From IMG/VR virus record IMGVR_UViG_3300030372_000355, positions 1 to 30,992 of that record: a DNA stretch of 30,992 bases; one strand, 5' to 3'. Made by a program: the position numbers and the translations under genes. The DNA is from a virus. Lineage: Duplodnaviria; Caudoviricetes. Below are positions 339-24,413 of this stretch, piece after piece (position 1 is the first letter of the stretch; each line of letters starts with the position of its first letter). Below the pieces are notes generated by a model, which was not told the DNA's origin, did not search any database, and saw nothing but the letters and a program-made list of their open reading frames with translations.

Positions 339-1052
339 TTAAATATTTAGATTAAATTTTGGAAAAAAAGACATTTTTTGTGGCGCACAAACTTTAATCC
401 ATTCTGGAGGGATACCAGTAGATTTTTTATTAAACGGCAAATTAGTTTTAGGGTGTAATAAATCTAATGTGTAGTTAGGCGTGCTTTCATTAATTTTAAC
501 TAAAGCAACAATGGGAGTGCAACCTTCTTTAGCTGCTTTATTATTTGGTTCTAAATAACAAATTTTATTAATACTATCTTCATGGAAACCTTCATAATCA
601 TTTTTTAAACCATATCTTTCAAACAGCAAAATTTCTCCATGATGTTGACTACCAATTTTAAAAAATTTTACTGCTTTTGTCTCTGGTGTATAAAAACCAC
701 CAGGAACTATTACATCATGGTAATATCTTTTTGTAATATCTTTAACCATAAAACTATCATCTGTATAAGAATGAATTTGTATTGAATTTAATTTTTTAGG
801 CGGAAATAATATTGCAGCTGGATCACATTTTAAAATTTTTGCAATTTCAATAGCATTTTCTGGTGTAATTTGTCTTTCGTAATTAACCCAACGATTTACA
901 GTAACAATATTTTTTTGTAACTTTTGTGCTAGTTCTTTTTGAGACATACCCACTTGGGTTATCTTCTCTTTCAAAAAATTCATGTCTGAACTAATACCCT
1001 TTTTGTTCTTGCTATTTGAAATATTAGTTATGTCTGTAACATTATTTACCAT
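339..1052 (-). CDS. CI-like XRE-family HTH repressor
   Basis: N-terminal HTH (MSQKELAQKLQKNIVTVNRWVNYERQITPENAIEIAKIL) and divergent from a Cro-like gene. The C-terminal domain has no recognisable S24 peptidase Ser/Lys motifs. Confidence 0.85.
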   Translation of the reverse strand: MVNNVTDITNISNSKNKKGISSDMNFLKEKITQVGMSQKELAQKLQKNIVTVNRWVNYERQITPENAIEIAKILKCDPAAILFPPKKLNSIQIHSYTDDSFMVKDITKRYYHDVIVPGGFYTPETKAVKFFKIGSQHHGEILLFERYGLKNDYEGFHEDSINKICYLEPNNKAAKEGCTPIVALVKINESTPNYTLDLLHPKTNLPFNKKSTGIPPEWIKVCAPQKMSFFPKFNLNI

Positions 1053-11906: not shown

Positions 11907-14675
11907 ATGCCTAAACAACTTTTAAGCATACCTAGCTTTACGGCTGGGGAGCTTTCATCCTCTATGGAGGGTAGAACAGACTTTGCCAAATATTTTAATG
12001 GCGCAACAAATATAGAAAACTTTGTTGTATTACCCCACGGGCCAGTAACTAGACGGCCAGGATCTTATTTTGTATCTGAAATAAAAACATCTGCAAATAG
12101 CACAAGATTAATACCATTTACTTTCTCAACTGAACAAACTTACATTTTAGAATTGGGCAACAATTATATCAGATTTTTTAAAGATAGTGGTCAAATAGTT
12201 GAAAGTAATAAAACTATAACAGCAATAACTAAAGCTAATCCAGGTGTAGTTACATCTAGTTCACATGGTTATTCTAACGGAGATTTTATAAATATTTCTA
12301 GTGTTGTAGGAATGACAGAAGTAAATAATAAAACTTTTAAAGTTGCCAACAAAACTACAAATACATTTGAGTTACAAGACGTTGATGGTAACAATGTTAA
12401 TTCATCTGGTTACACTACTTATTCATCTGCTGGAATAGCAAATAGAATTTATCAAATCACAACTGAATACACTACTGCACAACTGTTTGATTTAAAATTT
12501 GCGCAATCTGCTGACGTGATGTATATCTGCCATCCCGATCACGAACCGATGAAACTATCCAGAACTGGACATACATCCTGGTCGCTTACAGAAGTAGATT
12601 TTGGAACTAACGGGCCATACATGGATACTAACACAACGGCAACCACTTTAACGCCAGCATCCGCTGGTACGGGAACGGGTGTAGATATAACTGCCAGCTC
12701 AACTACTGGAATAAATAACGGGGATGGTTTTCAAACAACAGACGTTGGCAGAATAATAAAATTTAATGGTGGCGAAGCAAAGATAACGGGTAGAACAAAT
12801 ACAACAGTTGTAGTCTGCACAATTACCGATGCTTTTGCTAACACCGATGCCACAGCAACTTTTCAATTAGGATCATTTTCTGACACTACTGGTTTTCCAT
12901 CTTCAGTTTCTTTTTTTGAACAGCGTTTAGTATTTGCAGCAACTAACGATCAACCACAAACTATATTTTTTTCAAAATCTGGAGACTATGAAAATATGTC
13001 TGCTGGAACTAATGATGATGATGCTATGATTTATACAATCGCATCAAATCAAGTTAATGCAATTAAAGCAATGAAAGCTACAAGAACTTTAATTGTAATG
13101 ACAACGGGTGGAGAATATTCCGTGTCATCTGGAAACGCATCTGCAATTACTCCTACAAATATTTCTATTGTTAAACAATCTAACTATGGTTCAGCGGGTG
13201 TTGATGCTTTATCTATTGGTAACGCCACTATCTTTTTACAAAGAGCTAAAAGAAAAATTAGAGAGCTTGCTTATAATTTTGATACTGATGGTTATGTTGC
13301 ACCAGACTTAACTATACTTGCAAATCATATTACCGAAACTGGCGTAGTTCAAATGGATTACCAACAAGAACCACATTCTGTAGTATGGGCTGCAAGAACA
13401 GACGGAGTGTTATCTGGTTTAACTTACAATAGATTAGAAAATGTCGTAGCCTGGCACAGACATATATTAGGTGGAAAATCAGACACAACTAAAAATATTA
13501 TTCAACAAAAAATTTCTTTTACTTCCAATGCTTCAAATGTTTCAACAACAAATAACACAATCACAATTTCATCACATGGTTTATCTACTGGCGATCCAGT
13601 TTATTATTATGCTGCGTCTAATGTTATTGGTGGATTAAACATTTCTTCACTTTATTACGTTATTGCAGCAGACAGTAATACGATTAAACTTGCAACGACA
13701 GCAACCAACGCTACAGCTGGTACGGCTATCAATTTAACATCGGCTCCTGGATCCGATACAACTCAATTTATTTATCAAGGTGTAAATATTTCTTCTAATT
13801 TTATTTATTCTGTATCTCATGGATTTAAAACTGGAGATATATTTTATTACGATAACACGGGTACAGCGATTGGCGGTTTATCGGAAAATACAAAATATTA
13901 TATTGAAAAAATTGATAACAATCAATTTAAACTGTATTCAGATAAAACTTTATCTACAGTTGTTAGTTTAACTTCAGCTCATACTTCAGAACAAACGGAT
14001 AATATTTTAACTCATGCTAAAGTAGAAAGTGTTGCTGTAATTGATGGCGATACCGATGAAGATCAAGTTTGGGTTATTGTTCAAAGATGGATAAACGGAG
14101 CTGTAAGACGTTATGTAGAATATTTTACACCATTTGATTTTTCAGAAGATGTAACAGCATTTCATTACCTGGATAGTGGATTAAGTTATGTTGGCGATGA
14201 AACATCTACATTATCTGGTTTAGATCATTTAGTTGGAGAAGTTGTAGATGTTATTGGCGAAGGTTCAACTCAAACTTCAAAAACTGTATCTGCTTCTGGC
14301 GGAATAACTTTAGACAATGCAACTGAACAAGCTAAAGTTGGTTTACTTTATACTTCTGATTTACAAACAATGAGATTAGATGAGGGTTATACAGAGACTA
14401 CTCAAACTAAAACAAAAAGAATTTACGATTTATCAATTAGATTTCAAGATACAGTAGGAGCTAGTGTGGGGCCAAATGCAGCTAATTTAACTGCTATTGA
14501 TTTTAGAGCTAGTGGATCTCCAATGAACTTGCCTATTCCATTATTTACTGGAGATAAAACAATAGAGTTTGATACGGGTTATGGAACTGAAGGATTAGTT
14601 TATGTTCAACAACCCCAAGCTCTACCAATGACGATCCTAGGTATCTATCCTAGATTGGAGACAGAAAGTGTCTAA
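11907..14675 (+). CDS. Tail tubular protein B (T7 gp12-like nozzle) with inserted domains
   Basis: SFTAGELS...RRPG, AQSADVMYICHP, FFEQRLVFA, AWHRH and LDSGL motifs. Carries FCCH-like and repeated HG-x-x-TGD insertions. Confidence 0.9.
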   Translation: MPKQLLSIPSFTAGELSSSMEGRTDFAKYFNGATNIENFVVLPHGPVTRRPGSYFVSEIKTSANSTRLIPFTFSTEQTYILELGNNYIRFFKDSGQIVESNKTITAITKANPGVVTSSSHGYSNGDFINISSVVGMTEVNNKTFKVANKTTNTFELQDVDGNNVNSSGYTTYSSAGIANRIYQITTEYTTAQLFDLKFAQSADVMYICHPDHEPMKLSRTGHTSWSLTEVDFGTNGPYMDTNTTATTLTPASAGTGTGVDITASSTTGINNGDGFQTTDVGRIIKFNGGEAKITGRTNTTVVVCTITDAFANTDATATFQLGSFSDTTGFPSSVSFFEQRLVFAATNDQPQTIFFSKSGDYENMSAGTNDDDAMIYTIASNQVNAIKAMKATRTLIVMTTGGEYSVSSGNASAITPTNISIVKQSNYGSAGVDALSIGNATIFLQRAKRKIRELAYNFDTDGYVAPDLTILANHITETGVVQMDYQQEPHSVVWAARTDGVLSGLTYNRLENVVAWHRHILGGKSDTTKNIIQQKISFTSNASNVSTTNNTITISSHGLSTGDPVYYYAASNVIGGLNISSLYYVIAADSNTIKLATTATNATAGTAINLTSAPGSDTTQFIYQGVNISSNFIYSVSHGFKTGDIFYYDNTGTAIGGLSENTKYYIEKIDNNQFKLYSDKTLSTVVSLTSAHTSEQTDNILTHAKVESVAVIDGDTDEDQVWVIVQRWINGAVRRYVEYFTPFDFSEDVTAFHYLDSGLSYVGDETSTLSGLDHLVGEVVDVIGEGSTQTSKTVSASGGITLDNATEQAKVGLLYTSDLQTMRLDEGYTETTQTKTKRIYDLSIRFQDTVGASVGPNAANLTAIDFRASGSPMNLPIPLFTGDKTIEFDTGYGTEGLVYVQQPQALPMTILGIYPRLETESV

Positions 14676-15120
14676 GATAGATTTTGTACCATTTGAAAAC
14701 AAACACGCAGAATTTATTTTAGAACAAGGATTAAATTCTGAATTGTTAGAGTTAAGACCCGAACACAGAAAATACGCTTATTATCTTAAAGAAATTGGAA
14801 TGTCGTTTACTGGGATGTTGAACAACAAACCCATAGCGGCTGGAGGAGTGTTTCCACTCTGGGATGGCGTAGCCGAAGGGTGGGTCTTGGCTACAAAACA
14901 AATAAATAACTTTCCAATAACATTTTCAAAAGTTATTAAATTAAGGTGCGATATGCTTTTAAAAAATAATAATTTTAAAAGATTTCAAACAAGTGTCAAA
15001 GCTGATTGTGATGTTGCTATCCGATTTGCAAAATTTTTAGGTTTAGAGGAAGAAGGATTAATGAAGAACTACGGGCCAGATGGTGCTGACTTTTACAGAT
15101 TTGCGAGGATTTTAAAATGA
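14668..15120 (+). CDS. GNAT acetyltransferase-like protein (T7 gp13 position)
   Basis: PIAAGGV..LW.GVAEGW...AIRFAKFLGL.EEG.M..YG pattern. Confidence 0.75.
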   Translation: MSKIDFVPFENKHAEFILEQGLNSELLELRPEHRKYAYYLKEIGMSFTGMLNNKPIAAGGVFPLWDGVAEGWVLATKQINNFPITFSKVIKLRCDMLLKNNNFKRFQTSVKADCDVAIRFAKFLGLEEEGLMKNYGPDGADFYRFARILK

Positions 15121-15565: not shown

Positions 15566-17671
15566 ATGTCAATTAAATTATACAAATCACAATTAGAACC
15601 AACAGCTAAATCTTCTAATGTTCAAAACAGAGCTTTTGCAAGTCTCCAGGAAGCTGGATCTATTGGTAGAGCCTGGAAAGGCATGGTTCAATCTGGAGAA
15701 AAACTTTACGCAAAACATCTTGATTATAAAACTGACAATGAAGTTTTAGAAAAAGTTAAAGAAGTTATGAATGGTAGCGATAGTTATACGGGTTTATCTG
15801 AAACTAAAATTAACGCATCACAAATGAGTGATCCAGATGCAGCGGGTAAATTATACAACGATCAATGGCAAACTATATTTGACACAGTAAATAGTCAACT
15901 CTCAGGCAAACAAGCTCAAAGAAAGTTCAAGTCATGGATGACAAAACAAAATTTTAAAGATGTAAACGCAATTAAAACAGCATCTACTGAAAATTTTTTA
16001 TTATCATTAAGAAGAAACAAATTAGATCAAGTTGAAACTTTAAAAAAATCTATACTGTATGGAACACCTTTAGAAAGTAGCGCAGCTCGTAAAGAATTAA
16101 ATGCCTGGTACGAAGATACAAAAACAAAAGAAATATTTGGTAATACATTAGATAAAGTAAAGAAAGCAACTGAAACACAAATTGCTTTTTTTAAATATAA
16201 AAATGTACCAATAGAACAACAAGCAGAAGCTATAGAATTAGCAAAGAAAGATCCAAATATTCCTCTTGATGGCGAATATTCTGTTGATGCTTTAGAAAAA
16301 TTACAAGTTACTAAAAAAGTTACTGCTGATTATGCAAACAAAAACAATATTAATACGATGGAAAGCAATATGAAAGCTGGCTATGTAATTAACGAAGAAG
16401 ATTTTGCAGCAGCTATTAAGATTGCGCAAGATACTGGCGATGAAAAAGGTTTAATTAAATTAGCACAAATGCAAGTTGATTATCCTATTTATCAACAACT
16501 AAACAATATGTCTGTAGAGGCAATTCAAAATAGAATAAATATTTTAACTAATTTTCAAGGTAAAGATGGAAAAGGTAAAAAATTAGAAGATATAAATAAT
16601 TTAAGAATTTCAAAAGAATATTTAGATAATTTAACTACAGAATTAAATAAAGATCAATTAGTAACAGCTAGTGAAAAAAATATTATTAGTCTTGAAACTA
16701 TAGGTTTTGAAGAATTACTAACAACTGGCAATATTGATAATTTTAAAGATAAAGTTGAAAAAAGAATTGCACAAGCCAAAACTGTTTCTGATTTTTATAA
16801 AAGATCAATTAAATATTTTACAGAAGATGAAAAGACAGCTATTCAAAGTGCGTTTGATAGTGCAACAAGTGCTAATCAAATTATAAATTTATCTACTGGT
16901 TTAGTTAAAGCATTCGGTATGGATAGTGCAAAAGCATTTAAAGAATTTTCTAAAGATAGTTCAGTTTTTGCTCACATAGGCGGATTAGTTATGATGAATA
17001 ATGGCGTGCCAGGCAATAATGTAAAATTAGCTGTCGATGGATATTTGTTATCTAAAAATGCAGATCTTGCTGATAAGTATAAAATGAAAAGCACAGATGG
17101 AGTTTTACTAAATGTTATAGGTAAATATTCTGGAGCTTTTGGAGAAAATCAAAATACTTTTAATAGAGTAGTAGAAACAGCTAATTATATTTACGCTGCA
17201 CAATTAAAAAATAATGGAGAAACTACAAAAAATTTTAAAGGTTCTGAATGGGAAGAAGCATTTAAAATGGCTGCTGGTGCAACAATAATTGAAAAAACGG
17301 GGCCAGATATAACAATGGGTGGCTTTGATATTAACTCAAGAAAAAACATGGTTGCTATTCCACCTTGGTTAGAAGAAGGAAAATTTAAAGATGTTGAAGA
17401 ATTATTAAAAAGTAATCCAGAATTGTTTACTCAAGCATCATCAAATGGAAAAAATCCACAAATAAACGGAGAAGAATTTTTACCATCACAAGTTTTTTTA
17501 GAACAATATCCATATTTTGTAAGTGTTGGTAATGGTAAATATAAAATAGCCATGGGAGAAAATCCTCTTACACTTGGAGGAGATCACGAATATTTATTTA
17601 ATACTGACAATCAATTATTCATAATTGATCTAAATAATATCAAAGCAGAAATAACAACAGAATTACAATAA
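15566..17671 (+). CDS. Internal virion (ejection) protein, gp15-like
   Basis: 701 aa, largely helical, in the ejection-protein block. Confidence 0.65.
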   Translation: MSIKLYKSQLEPTAKSSNVQNRAFASLQEAGSIGRAWKGMVQSGEKLYAKHLDYKTDNEVLEKVKEVMNGSDSYTGLSETKINASQMSDPDAAGKLYNDQWQTIFDTVNSQLSGKQAQRKFKSWMTKQNFKDVNAIKTASTENFLLSLRRNKLDQVETLKKSILYGTPLESSAARKELNAWYEDTKTKEIFGNTLDKVKKATETQIAFFKYKNVPIEQQAEAIELAKKDPNIPLDGEYSVDALEKLQVTKKVTADYANKNNINTMESNMKAGYVINEEDFAAAIKIAQDTGDEKGLIKLAQMQVDYPIYQQLNNMSVEAIQNRINILTNFQGKDGKGKKLEDINNLRISKEYLDNLTTELNKDQLVTASEKNIISLETIGFEELLTTGNIDNFKDKVEKRIAQAKTVSDFYKRSIKYFTEDEKTAIQSAFDSATSANQIINLSTGLVKAFGMDSAKAFKEFSKDSSVFAHIGGLVMMNNGVPGNNVKLAVDGYLLSKNADLADKYKMKSTDGVLLNVIGKYSGAFGENQNTFNRVVETANYIYAAQLKNNGETTKNFKGSEWEEAFKMAAGATIIEKTGPDITMGGFDINSRKNMVAIPPWLEEGKFKDVEELLKSNPELFTQASSNGKNPQINGEEFLPSQVFLEQYPYFVSVGNGKYKIAMGENPLTLGGDHEYLFNTDNQLFIIDLNNIKAEITTELQ

Positions 17672-20124
17672 TGTCTATTTTTTACGATGAAGAACAAGCT
17701 ACAGCTGTAGAAAATGTAACCAGTACTGCTCAAGGCGAAAGAACTGGTTTTATGAAAAACTATAGTGCTGCCTATAATGCTTTTACTAGATCAGAAACTT
17801 TTGCATCTGAACGAAATAATTATGCAGAAGAATATGGCAACATGATTGAAATATTAAATAAAACGGGTCATACAGATTTTGTTTCTCCTTATGATAATAT
17901 GTTGACTTTTTCTGGAGAAGGCGAAGAACGAGTTGTCGGATATAAGCAAGTTGCTAAAATTCCTAATAGACAAGAATTAGAAGTAGATTTTTGGAATAAA
18001 ATTTCAGAACTACAAACAACAGATGAAAATTTAAAATCATTATTAGTAGAAGCTGGTTTAGATACTCCAGATAATATGAAAGCAACTATAGCAAGTAAAG
18101 CTCATAGTGCCTGGGAAGAATACGAAAATATAAACCAGAGAGCTTCTGGAGAATGGTATTCTTTTGGTGGTAAAACTGGTGGCTTTGTTGGTATGGCTGG
18201 AGGTGCATTTACAGATCCGATTATGTTAGGTGGTGTAGCAGCATCTTTTGGTTACTCTATTCCAAGTGGTATAGGTGCAGCAGCTTTAAGAGTTGCATAC
18301 ATGGAAGCAATTATTGGTGGTGTAACTGAAACATTAATACAATTAAAAGCACAACCATACAGAGCAGAGCTTGGTTTTGAAGATGCTGGTTTAGAAACTG
18401 GTTTAAAAAATATTGCCATGGTATCTGGTGCATCAGCTGTTTTATCTCCATTATTATTAGGTGTGTTTAAATCATTTGGTAAAGGTATTGAAGTAGGCCA
18501 AAAATATCTTGCTAAAGTTCCAACAGAAGATTTACAAAAAATAAAACAAGAACTTAATAATATAAATTCTAAATACAAAGATGATGCTTTAGATAATTAC
18601 AAATTTCCAGAAAAAGATATACCTAACAATACTCCAGCTGCACGAACTGAACATAATGAAAGATTAAATACAGCTGTTAAACAATTACAAGACGGACAAC
18701 CCGTAGATCTACCGCCAATAAGAAATAAAATTATATATCATGGCACAGATAAATATTTTAAAGAGTTTGATCTTAATAAAACAGCAGATCAATCTATTTG
18801 GTTTACAGATGATATTAACGCTATCAAAGCTGGTAAAGTAGGAGCTAGTGGCAAAGGTAATATTATTGAAAGAATAATAGACGAAAATAAAATAAAATTA
18901 GCAACTGCTGAACAAGCTGATAAATTAACAGACGATCAATTAATTGCACAAGGGTTTGAAGGTGTTAAGTATGAAAAATCTGCTGGTTTTGATGACAATA
19001 GTTACAGAATATTTAATACAGAAAAATTAGACAAAACTGGTTCCGTTCAATCTAAATCTGGTTTTAACAAAAACGAAACTAAATTAGCTGAAGATATTGA
19101 AGGTGTTAAAGATTTTGATGTGCCTACAGAGGCAGCTTATAGAAATCAAGCCTCAGTTTCAGAAGGAGAAATGTTTGAAGATGGAATGTCTTTGGCCATT
19201 AAAACGGAAGCTGGAGCAACATCAGCAGCAAAAACAGTTCCTACTGGTAAGCCTTTAGCAAAAACCCAGGATTTGGCATCTACATCCCAGGTAACAGATG
19301 CAGCTCCGTCATCTAAAGTTTTAGCAACTGCACAAACTAAACCTCCACTTATACGAGGTTCTACTACCAGTTCTGTTGGCGATTTTAATTCCATAACTAA
19401 AGATCGATTATACCATATATCAAATGATTTCAACGAAATTTACAGTACGTTGTCGAAAAAACTTGATAGAGTTAAAAAGGATTTACAACCTACAGCAACA
19501 AAATATAGTGGCGATTTAAAGGCACGAATAAAAGATAAGTCTAAATTACAAGAAAAATTAGATCAAAATATTAAACCAGAACATATTTCAGATTATTTAG
19601 GTGCAAGAATTAATTTAGACACCATAACACAAGCAAAGCTAGTTTTATCAGATTTAAACAAACAAGTTAAAATTATTCACATTGACGATTTTTTAGATGA
19701 TGTAGCAAGATCTAATAAAGGCTCTGAATATAGAGCTATTCATGCACAAGTATTAACTAAAGATGGTTTTTCTTTTGAATTACAAATTAGATTAAAAGAA
19801 CTAGAAAAACTTACAGATGAAAGCCACGCAGTTTATAAAAAGTTAAAATGGCAAAAAGATACTTTAACAGCAAAAGAATTAAATCAATTATTAGAAGCTG
19901 ATAAAAAAATTAAAAAAAAATTAAAAGCTAAATATTTTGAAATTAAAGATAAAGAGTTTTCAAGATTAAATCCAACTAATGATATTGATACACCAATAGT
20001 TATTGGACAAAGAATAGATGAGGCTACTGGAGAAATAGTACCACTTACAAAAACATCAAGAGAAATGTACGAACAAGATGCTAAAAGTGCAACTATGTTT
20101 GAAAGATTGAAGGATTGTATATGA
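17671..20124 (+). CDS. Internal virion protein carrying ART-like and RelA/SpoT synthetase-like domains
   Basis: Gly/Ala-rich hydrophobic segment typical of ejection proteins. YHGT...IWFTDD...GFEGV...YRIFN at aa ~354-455. RxK...EK, DYLGAR, EYRAIH, ELQIR and SHAVYK at aa ~615-724. Confidence 0.8.
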   Translation: MSIFYDEEQATAVENVTSTAQGERTGFMKNYSAAYNAFTRSETFASERNNYAEEYGNMIEILNKTGHTDFVSPYDNMLTFSGEGEERVVGYKQVAKIPNRQELEVDFWNKISELQTTDENLKSLLVEAGLDTPDNMKATIASKAHSAWEEYENINQRASGEWYSFGGKTGGFVGMAGGAFTDPIMLGGVAASFGYSIPSGIGAAALRVAYMEAIIGGVTETLIQLKAQPYRAELGFEDAGLETGLKNIAMVSGASAVLSPLLLGVFKSFGKGIEVGQKYLAKVPTEDLQKIKQELNNINSKYKDDALDNYKFPEKDIPNNTPAARTEHNERLNTAVKQLQDGQPVDLPPIRNKIIYHGTDKYFKEFDLNKTADQSIWFTDDINAIKAGKVGASGKGNIIERIIDENKIKLATAEQADKLTDDQLIAQGFEGVKYEKSAGFDDNSYRIFNTEKLDKTGSVQSKSGFNKNETKLAEDIEGVKDFDVPTEAAYRNQASVSEGEMFEDGMSLAIKTEAGATSAAKTVPTGKPLAKTQDLASTSQVTDAAPSSKVLATAQTKPPLIRGSTTSSVGDFNSITKDRLYHISNDFNEIYSTLSKKLDRVKKDLQPTATKYSGDLKARIKDKSKLQEKLDQNIKPEHISDYLGARINLDTITQAKLVLSDLNKQVKIIHIDDFLDDVARSNKGSEYRAIHAQVLTKDGFSFELQIRLKELEKLTDESHAVYKKLKWQKDTLTAKELNQLLEADKKIKKKLKAKYFEIKDKEFSRLNPTNDIDTPIVIGQRIDEATGEIVPLTKTSREMYEQDAKSATMFERLKDCI
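19146..19394 (-). CDS. Nested antisense 82-aa protein (candidate immunity/antitoxin)
   Basis: ATG at 19394 lies 12 bp downstream of a perfect TGnTATAAT. The product MELKSPTELVVEPRISGGLVCAVAKTLDDGAASVTWDVDAKSWVFAKGLPVGTVFAADVAPASVLMAKDIP... looks globular, while the + frame here is an S/T/A/P-rich linker. Confidence 0.55.
   Translation of the reverse strand: MELKSPTELVVEPRISGGLVCAVAKTLDDGAASVTWDVDAKSWVFAKGLPVGTVFAADVAPASVLMAKDIPSSNISPSETEA
19407..19433 (-). promoter_or_regulatory. Internal antisense promoter (extended -10)
   Basis: Minus strand TTGAAA (19433-19428), then TG-G-TATAAT (19415-19407). The -35 spacing is only 15 bp, but the extended -10 is consensus. Confidence 0.6.
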
Positions 20125-22754: not shown

Positions 22755-24413
22755 ATGACGATTTCTACGACAACTTTGCGTAATTCCTATAGTGGTAACG
22801 GATCCACGACAGAATTTGCGTACACATTTCCGATAAATTCAACTTCTGAAATAACAGTAATTGAAAGATCGGCTACTGGAACAGAGACAGTTAAATCTGA
22901 AGGTACTGGATCTACTAATTATTCTATAGTTGATAATGGCGCATCGGGTGGAACTGTTACTATGGTTACGGCTCCCGCATCGGGAACTACTTTAGTTATT
23001 TTAAGAAACACTAATTTAACTCAAGAAACGGATTATGTTGCTAATGATCCATTTCCAGCAGAAACTCACGAAGATGCTTTGGATAAACTCCAAATGCAAA
23101 ACCAGGAGCTTCAAGAAGAATTAGATAGATCTCTTAAAATTTCTCGTACTAACACAATGACGAGTACCGAGTTTACTACGTCTGCAACTGACAGAGCTAG
23201 TAAAGTATTGTCATTTGATAGTTCTGGAGAGCTATCTGTAACGCAAGAGCTTGGAACATTTAAAGGTAACTGGGCCGCTTCAACAGCGTATGTAATTAGA
23301 GATTTAGTTAAAGATACGTCAACTAATAATATTTTTATTTGTGTAACTGCTCATACCAGCTCTGGTTCACAACCATTAACGACAAATACAGACAGCGCAA
23401 AATGGTCTTTAATAGTTGACGCTGCATCGGCTACCAGTTCTCAAAGTGCTGCTGCAAGTTCAGCCACAGCAGCGGCCAACTCTGCGACAGCTGCCGCTTC
23501 AAGTGCCTCAACTGCGAGTGGCCATAAAGATACTGCGACTACAAAAGCCTCAGAAGCCGCTTCATCGGCAACAGCTGCGGCTAGTTCAGCTACATCTGCT
23601 GCTGCCAGTTACGATAATTTTGATGATAGATACCTAGGAGCAAAATCTAGTGATCCTTCAGCTGATAATGACGGAGACAGTTTAGTTACTGGAGCATTAT
23701 ATTTTAATACTTCAAATAATGTTATGATGGTTTACACGGGTTCTGCCTGGGTAAGAACTACTCCGAGTTCTTCGGATCAAACAAATATTAATACTTTATC
23801 TGCTAGCGCAGTAGTAACTGATATGGGATTATTGGCTACTACCGATGTTATCGCTGATATGGCTTTGTTAGCAAATTCAGATGTTATTGCTGACATGGCA
23901 TTATTAGCAACAACAGATGTCATTGCAGACATGAATACTCTAGCAACGTCTGATATTGTTTCTGACTTAAATACTTTAGCAACGTCTGACATTGTTTCAG
24001 ATCTTAATCAATTAGCCACTTCAGATTTTGTATCTGACTTGAATGCTATTGAAGCAATCAAAGCTAATGTAACAACTGTTGCTGATAATGTAGCTGGTGT
24101 AAATAGTTTTGCAGAAAGATATAGAGTTGGATCATCTGATCCCTCATCTAGTAATGATGCTGGAGATCTCGCGTTTAATACATCGTCAAATGTTTTAAAA
24201 TATTACGATGGCTCTGCTTGGCAAACTATATCAGCCAATACAGACATAAAAGTTTCTGTATCATCAAATGATACAACACCAAATTTCTTACTTTCAAAAT
24301 TTACTGCTGGATCTGGGATCTCTCTAGCAGAAACAAACGATGGCGGTAATGAAACTATAACAATAACAAATACTGGAGATGACCCAACAGCCTTGGCGAT
24401 AGCTTTAGGTTAA
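22755..24413 (+). CDS. Tail fibre protein (T7 gp17-like N-terminus)
   Basis: YSGNGSTTEFAYTF...R.T...ALDKL N-terminal anchor, a GNWAASTAY..RDLV module, an Ala/Ser-rich stalk, 12-aa repeats and a TALAIALG end. Confidence 0.85.
   Translation: MTISTTTLRNSYSGNGSTTEFAYTFPINSTSEITVIERSATGTETVKSEGTGSTNYSIVDNGASGGTVTMVTAPASGTTLVILRNTNLTQETDYVANDPFPAETHEDALDKLQMQNQELQEELDRSLKISRTNTMTSTEFTTSATDRASKVLSFDSSGELSVTQELGTFKGNWAASTAYVIRDLVKDTSTNNIFICVTAHTSSGSQPLTTNTDSAKWSLIVDAASATSSQSAAASSATAAANSATAAASSASTASGHKDTATTKASEAASSATAAASSATSAAASYDNFDDRYLGAKSSDPSADNDGDSLVTGALYFNTSNNVMMVYTGSAWVRTTPSSSDQTNINTLSASAVVTDMGLLATTDVIADMALLANSDVIADMALLATTDVIADMNTLATSDIVSDLNTLATSDIVSDLNQLATSDFVSDLNAIEAIKANVTTVADNVAGVNSFAERYRVGSSDPSSSNDAGDLAFNTSSNVLKYYDGSAWQTISANTDIKVSVSSNDTTPNFLLSKFTAGSGISLAETNDGGNETITITNTGDDPTALAIALG
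23820..24035 (+). repeat. Six degenerate 36-bp (12-aa) tandem repeats in the tail fibre
   Basis: DMGLLATTDVIA, DMALLANSDVIA, DMALLATTDVIA, DMNTLATSDIVS, DLNTLATSDIVS, DLNQLATSDFVS. Confidence 0.9.

Follow-up and report, generated by a model that had tools for sequence, protein, structure and literature searches.

An 82-residue gene nested antisense in a pelagiphage structural-block gene, and its joint inheritance with an alarmone-synthetase domain

The locus and its nested antisense gene

Here, we describe a gene nested antisense inside a larger phage gene at positions 17671-20124 of IMG/VR virus record IMGVR_UViG_3300030372_000355 (positions 1 to 30,992; this whole stretch of 30,992 nucleotides is called the window below), which covers most of the genome of a podophage, a pelagiphage (marine SAR11 virus) that is related to HTVC010P and is probably temperate. 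The larger gene lies in the block of internal-virion and ejection proteins and, as a first-pass annotation of the sequence had read it, forms a single open frame of 817 amino acids (aa) with several domains, among them one of the small-alarmone-synthetase (SAS) type. The elements of the locus are:

17671..20124, plus strand: the 817-aa multi-domain gene in the internal-virion/ejection block, a single open frame
17671..18705, plus strand: conserved carrier region (aa 1-345), present whether or not the cassette is there; it has a hydrophobic stretch rich in Gly and Ala
18727..19035, plus strand: ART-PolyVal-like domain (about aa 353-455) in a swappable slot; Pfam match, model confidence (pLDDT) about 50-87
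19146..19394, minus strand: nested antisense gene, 82 aa, ATG start; a small beta-sheet plus helices in the model, no library match
19407..19433, minus strand: candidate antisense promoter, with TTGAAA at 19433-19428 and an extended -10 at 19415-19407, in the first SAS codons
19423..19965, plus strand: SAS (RelA/SpoT SYNTH) domain, about aa 585-765, assigned from Pfam, fold and catalytic residues
19146..19960, no strand: putative mobile cassette (antisense gene plus SAS), an in-frame insert; the right edge is approximate, the left edge is the antisense stop at sense codons 492-493

In a single genome, the antisense open reading frame (ORF) is within what chance allows. It runs from 19394 to 19146 in the frame whose third codon positions coincide with those of the sense gene, a frame in which shadow ORFs are common. 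Given the sense protein and its codon usage, the probability that it is open is 0.12 in the window (0.02-0.33 across 21 representatives with less than 85% linker identity), and the minus strand of the window has three further ATG ORFs, 71-78 aa long, in addition to a repressor gene. That the ORF is a real gene is therefore argued from comparative data. We gathered 102 loci, and those covering both the linker and the SAS domain, the window included, gave 61 distinct linker sequences once fragments, short forms and duplicates had been dropped.

The antisense ORF is intact, starts with ATG and spans 80-84 aa in 61/61 of these distinct SAS-bearing sequences, with its stop at sense codons 492-493, and no case of a SAS domain without an intact antisense ORF was found. 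No antisense stop lies across sense codons 501-560, whereas many are found in most of the other windows of 20 codons. His or Gln codons preceded by T, which would read as antisense stops, occur 0/171 times inside the ORF as against 765/2050 outside it, and those preceded by C, which read as antisense Trp, 122/171 times inside as against 190/2050 outside; this C is retained under five sense residues (Ser, Thr, Ile, Phe and Leu). Across the 21 representatives, sites that are fourfold degenerate in the sense frame and not in the antisense frame have a pairwise difference of 0.264 inside the ORF versus 0.445 and 0.459 in its flanks, while sites that are fourfold degenerate in the antisense frame, and hence silent in both, are flat at 0.40-0.41 everywhere. 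The selection contrast is specific to the antisense frame and to the ORF region. A product of per-lineage probabilities (1e-20) was rejected because the lineages are not independent.

AlphaFold models the 82-aa product with a mean pLDDT of 85, and the sense-strand linker opposite it is disordered (pLDDT <50); a model of aa 345-774 of the large protein gives a confident SAS domain, a moderate ART region and disorder at about aa 460-577. The 82-aa family has no match in Pfam (41 members), PHROG, PADLOC, NCBIfam or ESM Atlas, and the protein has none in GenBank phages. Its fold reaches a best Z of 3.4 among 48,161 chains and gives no Foldseek match at E ≤0.001 in PDB or BFVD.

Relatives of the antisense protein also stand alone. 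Protein searches with the family returned 18 proteins in one case and 49 in another, and many of these have N- or C-termini that are not shared; a few weak matches, e.g. P0212, look unrelated. Some of the free-standing homologues carry membrane tails, which could put the domain at the site of entry. C-terminal hydrophobic, probably membrane, tails are seen in P0123, in the P0124 cluster (55 members, one of them on a 508-kb contig) and in P0216. Genome G395 encodes on its minus strand an 89-aa homologue, 63% identical over 56 aa, that has no open frame opposite it and lies in an islet (L132:9669-10999) of 1.25 kb between tRNA-Pro and a 26-nucleotide repeat of the tRNA 3' end. An uncharacterised 209-aa gene shares the islet, on the same strand as the orphan homologue. 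In genome G416 (L177:9823-12499), two tandem homologues, in housekeeping surroundings, have a cytosine methyltransferase gene and a restriction-nuclease-like gene as neighbours. Both genomes are incomplete, and the only Rel in either is the housekeeping one. A more distant cluster of the family has members in Ca. Methylopumilus chromosomes. A degenerate DNA scan found known loci only, and a scan with P0200, a fusion protein taken up below, nested phage copies only.

Together, the intact ORF in 61/61 sequences, the frame-specific selection, the confident predicted fold and the free-standing homologues support the view that the antisense ORF is a genuine protein-coding gene kept by selection; the first-pass annotation had likewise taken it for a gene. 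A longer antisense ORF of 108 aa (18252-18578) was rejected as a gene, many relatives having antisense stops there. Short, near-identical metatranscriptome pieces lie over the antisense ORF in 3/4 runs (X1 19131-19318, X2 19297-19447 and X5 19042-19208) and are not used here; the runs were chosen with this stretch, the contigs are unstranded and further pieces map elsewhere.

For the promoter that the earlier reading had placed before the antisense gene, the evidence is divided. The layout is TTGAAA, 15 nucleotides and TATAAT, with an upstream TG, 12 nucleotides before the ATG; no Shine-Dalgarno motif precedes the antisense ATG, and the site would yield a nearly leaderless mRNA. A TG-n-TATA-w motif is found in 58/61 distinct sequences, 9 or 12 nucleotides from the ATG in 53/60, and the codon before Tyr581 is NTA in 60/61, with ATA chosen for 19/20 Ile compared with about 40% gene-wide. 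Motif conservation and codon bias favour a candidate promoter. However, a consensus promoter scan did not list this site, its 15 sites in the region are close to the shuffle mean of 12.7, and the motif overlaps conserved sense Tyr-His codons.

A cassette shared with the synthetase domain

The SAS domain is matched by Pfam RelA_SpoT (PF04607) at aa 619-724 with 42.5 bits (cut-off 27; E value 8.9e-11), and PF04607 is present in all 120 protein homologues among the matches listed (231 homologues in total). Its modelled fold superposes on RelQ/RelP with a Z of 15.3 (root-mean-square deviation 3.0-3.1 over 167-170 aa), on CapRel with 12.4 and on Tas1 with 12.3, and Foldseek gives a match at E 2.4e-7. 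With the catalytic set of FaRel2 as reference (PMC11782079), mapped onto the domain by motif spacing, R619, K621, K629, D641, R646, Y687 and Q705 are invariant in 61/61 distinct sequences, E703 is kept in 60/61 and G644 in 59/61; H691 is likewise invariant in 61/61. The syn motifs (G-x-R, x-I-H, I/V-R/S) read as Rel/FaRel2-like and not as Apk-like, for which RYT, GxN and YH would stand at syn2-4. Rel-like motifs without the Apk signatures therefore make (p)ppGpp or pyrophosphorylated tRNA a more likely product than (p)ppApp.

The antisense gene and this domain come and go together. Among the 102 loci, 89 reach the C-terminus, of which 83 have both linker and SAS, six have neither and none has one alone; the remaining 13 are cut or broken. 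In a FastTree tree of the carriers, with a distant short form as outgroup, the six short forms are spread over three positions within the long ones. In the short forms, the residue at the antisense stop joins directly to the C-terminal tail, and so the left edge of the insert is the end of the antisense gene. Antisense identity correlates with SAS identity at a rho of 0.71 and with carrier identity at 0.20 (55 sequences). In 19 pairs whose carriers are ≥90% identical, antisense identity is ≤0.70 and SAS identity 0.51-0.76; for L002 and L004, the values are 0.97 for the carrier, 0.57 for the antisense protein and 0.59 for SAS. SAS position 625 is E/Q in 16/16 sequences of antisense type B and in 0/45 of type A, and the antisense ORF is retained in carriers just 31-39% identical to the query. 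Physical linkage alone could give such co-variation, and we therefore read it as the mark of a mobile unit and not of physical interaction. Co-folding the antisense protein with the SAS segment (aa 576-775) gave a score of 0.03 (mark 0.32), which counts neither way. These patterns support antisense gene and SAS being gained, lost and exchanged as a unit between near-identical phages, which agrees with the joint gain and loss that had been predicted for them.

The second enzymatic domain fares differently. The first-pass annotation had seen two in-frame domains, and while SAS is strongly matched, ART is weak: ART-PolyVal (PF18760) matches aa 353-435 with 23.3 bits on the whole protein and 28.7 on the piece, below the cut-off of 31.2, which two close homologues pass (L052 with 31.5, P0029 with 33.5). 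Aligned by eye, the active site is H357, W377 and E430 where H/Y/D is described, with D in several homologues, and the SAS domain dominated the fold searches. Across the 61 sequences, the slot before the linker holds ART in 15 and a ParB-like motif in two (so labelled solely from the motif and PHROG). In the other 44, three of them fragments, the segment is of another kind or missing. L010 has its ART-like domain after SAS. With ART in 15/61 and in a separate swappable slot, we therefore treat it as separate from the cassette; it was rejected as a fixed partner and appears to be an independent passenger. The earlier reading thus held in the main, for the antisense gene and its linkage to SAS, and failed in making ART a fixed component of the system. 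The slot (window 18700-19060; also L010, L030, L091 and L097) has held at least five unrelated modules, most without a Pfam match, and in some relatives ART-like or ParB-like modules are inserted after SAS as well.

Some relatives carry a second nested frame, absent from the window. Read on the sense strand in frame +1, it spans 82-89 codons at the end of a long ParB-like module and converges on the antisense gene; its carriers are L097, L164-L172 and duplicates. Four of these frames are:

L164:5404-5652, L167:5389-5658, L170:4124-4378 and L097:3813-4061, plus strand: second nested frame at the end of the ParB-like module

A profile made solely from four frames of this kind matches P0191 and P0200 in their C-terminal halves (E about 1e-11, 221 proteins); the N-terminal half of each belongs to the antisense family, so that these two are free-standing fusions of both nested domains. 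The second nested domain has a helical motif. Both fusions are singletons on short contigs, and the second nested gene is therefore a lead.

The carrier, aa 1-345, is likely a structural or ejection part, judging by its position and composition. The N-terminus of the 817-aa ORF has no PHROG family match, and the only match to this region in GenBank phages is one Vibrio phage hypothetical protein; no match to the ORF was found in cultured pelagiphages, and no isolate with the cassette among GenBank phages. Packaging and ejection are therefore inferred from gene position. The neighbours of the ORF match PHROG families 308 and 418 (internal virion protein), 992 (head protein) and 684 (virion structural protein), and from this setting the product is likely packaged in the virion and ejected. 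No MuF domain was found with Pfam or PHROG in the 817-aa protein or in 12 carrier regions.

The phage is placed among HTVC010P-type pelagiphages by a major capsid protein 60-65% identical to theirs and by a resembling gene order in the structural block. The same gene block as in the window is found on a contig of a Pelagibacter metagenome-assembled genome. One further feature of the window suggests a temperate phage:

339..1052, minus strand: divergent CI-like repressor

All five of the five long contigs with relatives of the 817-aa gene encode a tyrosine integrase. From this integrase and the window's repressor, the phage group is likely temperate, which suits the lysogen context assumed by the first-pass annotation; the integrase fits temperate pelagiphage subgroup II as described in PMC8477408.

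Elsewhere in the structural block, the window gene at 14668-15120 (the match to internal virion protein 308) has an additional weak GNAT acetyltransferase match (E 0.005), and the tail protein at 11907-14675 has an E1_FCCH-like domain at aa 111-179 (E 2e-11). The tail-fibre gene at 22755-24413 contains a GC-rich Ala/Ser segment and LED-like repeats (window 23400-24200). The annotation of the HTVC010P reference NC_020481.1 (L133:6530-11651) divides the internal-virion block into a number of short pieces in place of three long genes, possibly from sequencing frameshifts.

What the pair may do

What, then, could such a pair be for? We propose, with a probability of about 0.58, that a virion-packaged and ejected carrier bears an in-frame SAS domain, predicted to be toxic, and that the antisense 82-aa protein is its specific antidote. 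On this view, a virion protein gene would have taken up, in frame and close to its end, an immunity gene and a toxin domain arranged back to back. The reverse strand of the immunity gene would be read through as a disordered spacer of the big protein, and the promoter of that gene would lie where the coding sequence of the toxin domain begins. With a promoter of its own, the antidote would not depend on late transcription and would be present in lysogens, in cells that are producing phage and soon after the DNA has entered. The enzyme would be carried in the particle and reach the cell along with the DNA, and G nucleotides or tRNA would be its substrates for pyrophosphorylation; cells without the matching antidote would be slowed or poisoned, and lysogens of the same cassette type would be immune. 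Cassette types would then define immunity groups, and bacteria could gain protection by acquiring orphan copies.

A broader proposal is more tentative, and we would call it possible and somewhat doubtful: that temperate SAR11 phages carry swappable ejected toxin modules, each with an overprinted antidote (antisense for SAS, +1 for the ParB-like module), and that bacteria capture orphan or fused antidotes. If this is true, there would be an unrecognised arms race over virion-injected toxins that is invisible to gene callers.

Several points weigh against the toxin/antidote proposal. The carrier has no direct match to proven virion proteins. The compared sequences are related and some loci repeat one contig, so that our counts are not independent events, and joint inheritance and co-variation are no proof of functional interaction, as linkage yields both. 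In the enzyme, the position equivalent to FaRel2 S70 has K in the window, with S in just 23/61 sequences, and R707 is S in 29/61. The 82-aa protein is without any Tyr and hence without the YXXY motif of ATfaRel2/CapRel antitoxins. Two loci are broken: in L077 the sense frame breaks inside the linker, and in L101 (2974-5022) the frame ends inside SAS while the antisense ORF is intact; these are either assembly errors or inactivated cassettes. Orphans are rare in sampled SAR11 genomes (2/401, 2/401 and 1/401 in overlapping samples, counts that include one phage block, in G001). Finally, the benefit is not obvious, as a phage toxic to naive hosts would itself depend on a very rapid supply of the antidote.

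One alternative, which we consider unlikely, is that the pair works in lysogens or infected cells and is no injected weapon, either as a guard like Phrann gp29/gp30, in which the small protein restrains the enzyme until a competing phage or stress frees it, or as a mild (p)ppGpp source favouring lysogeny. The temperate context, the SAS motifs and a fold nearest to RelP/RelQ fit this, and PhRel offers a precedent (PMC7229694). However, SAS is always an in-frame fusion within a late structural gene whose C-terminal tail is kept, the alignment has no invariant internal Met, and a prophage would have to transcribe the late gene.

It is also improbable, in our estimate, that the antisense gene is an independent moron, for example for superinfection exclusion or inhibition of a host protein, that hitchhikes on the SAS insert. 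Its family occurs in bacterial chromosomes without a phage SAS, at times with membrane tails, overlapping exclusion genes are described in phage Fc02 (PMC9936078), and linkage would account for the co-variation. Set against these, the gene is never apart from SAS in the 89 complete loci, carriers 31-39% identical included, and no pair with SAS ≥90% identical has an antisense identity <75%. The second nested gene, found with a ParB-like module and fused to the antisense family in free-standing proteins, fits collections of antidotes.

Very improbable, and largely refuted by the comparative data already, is a shadow ORF of a Tyr/His-poor linker with a decayed or non-toxic SAS passenger: the chance of an open frame given above, a wobble-sharing frame that copies sense conservation automatically and a promoter motif overlapping conserved sense codons would suit it, but it meets antisense-frame-specific selection, a conserved start, stop and length, a confident predicted fold, free-standing homologues without an open opposite frame and invariant SAS catalytic residues.

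If the toxin/antidote proposal is right, this would be a natural protein antidote encoded wholly within the frame of the toxin that it counteracts, the pair being inseparable within a structural gene. The locus also provides an antisense overlapping gene that is well supported and has a function open to testing, which most such genes do not, and it adds a small protein family without a library match. Other frames may conceal immunity genes for phage effector domains that seem to have none, and a genome-wide search for these is possible. For SAR11, the cassette is one candidate way in which phage resistance or an advantage to lysogens could arise, and it bears on the open question of the role of virion-linked polymorphic toxins in temperate phages.

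Comparison with known systems

The nearest precedent is MuF-Apk2 with IapK and Aph1, where virion-linked Apk2 toxins of temperate phages are reported with cognate-specific IapK (PMC12226406); by analogy, it supports a toxin/antidote reading. With what is seen or predicted here, the system described there shares a temperate phage, a virion-linked N-terminal carrier, a RelA/SpoT-type toxin domain and a small linked partner that varies with the toxin. Unlike MuF-Apk2, the protein studied here has no MuF domain, its carrier being a podovirus internal-block protein; its SAS domain is internal whereas the Apk2 toxin domain is described as C-terminal; its syn motifs are Rel-like in place of the reported Apk set (RYT/GxN/YH); its partner is nested antisense in the toxin gene and not downstream of it; and there is no adjacent hydrolase. 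No sequence or fold match was found between the partner and known immunity proteins; in the comparison with Tis1, IapK and other solved antitoxin folds, the best Z is the 3.4 given above.

With the toxSAS enzymes FaRel, FaRel2, PhRel (Phrann gp29/gp30), PhRel2 and CapRel, as presented in PMC7229694, PMC11782079 and PMC12691689, the domain shares the SYNTH fold, equivalents of the FaRel2 catalytic pattern (R64, K66, K74, D90, G93, R95, Y128, E145 and Q147) and a conserved small neighbour gene linked to SAS (61/61 sequences). Their antitoxins are described as small, non-homologous and cognate-specific (PMC7229694). In contrast to toxSAS, there is no same-strand two- or three-gene operon here: the partner is antisense and nested in the SAS-bearing ORF, the enzyme is fused into a structural protein, and the S70 equivalent is variable. 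The neutralising YXXY motif given for pZFD/ATfaRel2-type antitoxins (PMC11782079) has no counterpart in the 82-aa protein.

Phage polyvalent proteins (PMC5512222) are reported to combine unrelated enzymatic domains (ART, RelA/SpoT, DdrB-like ParB) on one late or virion polypeptide and to shuffle them among relatives, as seen here. That work places the RelA/SpoT ones in Spirochaete and epsilon-proteobacterial phages, and in its main text the word "antisense" is absent and no nested immunity gene was found there. Two further cases concern the overlap itself. The olg1 gene in tle3, a toxin gene of the type VI secretion system (PMC8850804), is likewise a translated or functional opposite-strand gene overlapping a toxin gene; it is described as young, species-restricted and of unknown function, and Tle3 as having an ordinary adjacent tli3. 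The exclusion genes of Fc02 are an opposite-strand overlap, translated or functional, in a temperate phage and, as described in PMC9936078, are not toxin/antidote pairs. Unlike olg1 and the Fc02 genes, the nested gene described here has free-standing members in its family.

In the literature searched, which was covered in part, with supplements such as the Iyer 2017 and Jimmy 2020 datasets lying outside, we found no protein antidote of a phage SAS that is nested or antisense; to that extent, the first-pass remark that no description of the layout was known to it holds. On its sequence features, the system would work like MuF-Apk2/IapK and toxSAS without being a member of either, as it has no MuF, no Apk motifs, no same-strand operon and no YXXY. 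Virion-linked RelA/SpoT-type toxins with immunity and antisense overlaps were thus known before, and what appears to be new here, no such layout having been found, is a probable antidote nested within the gene of the predicted toxin it would neutralise.

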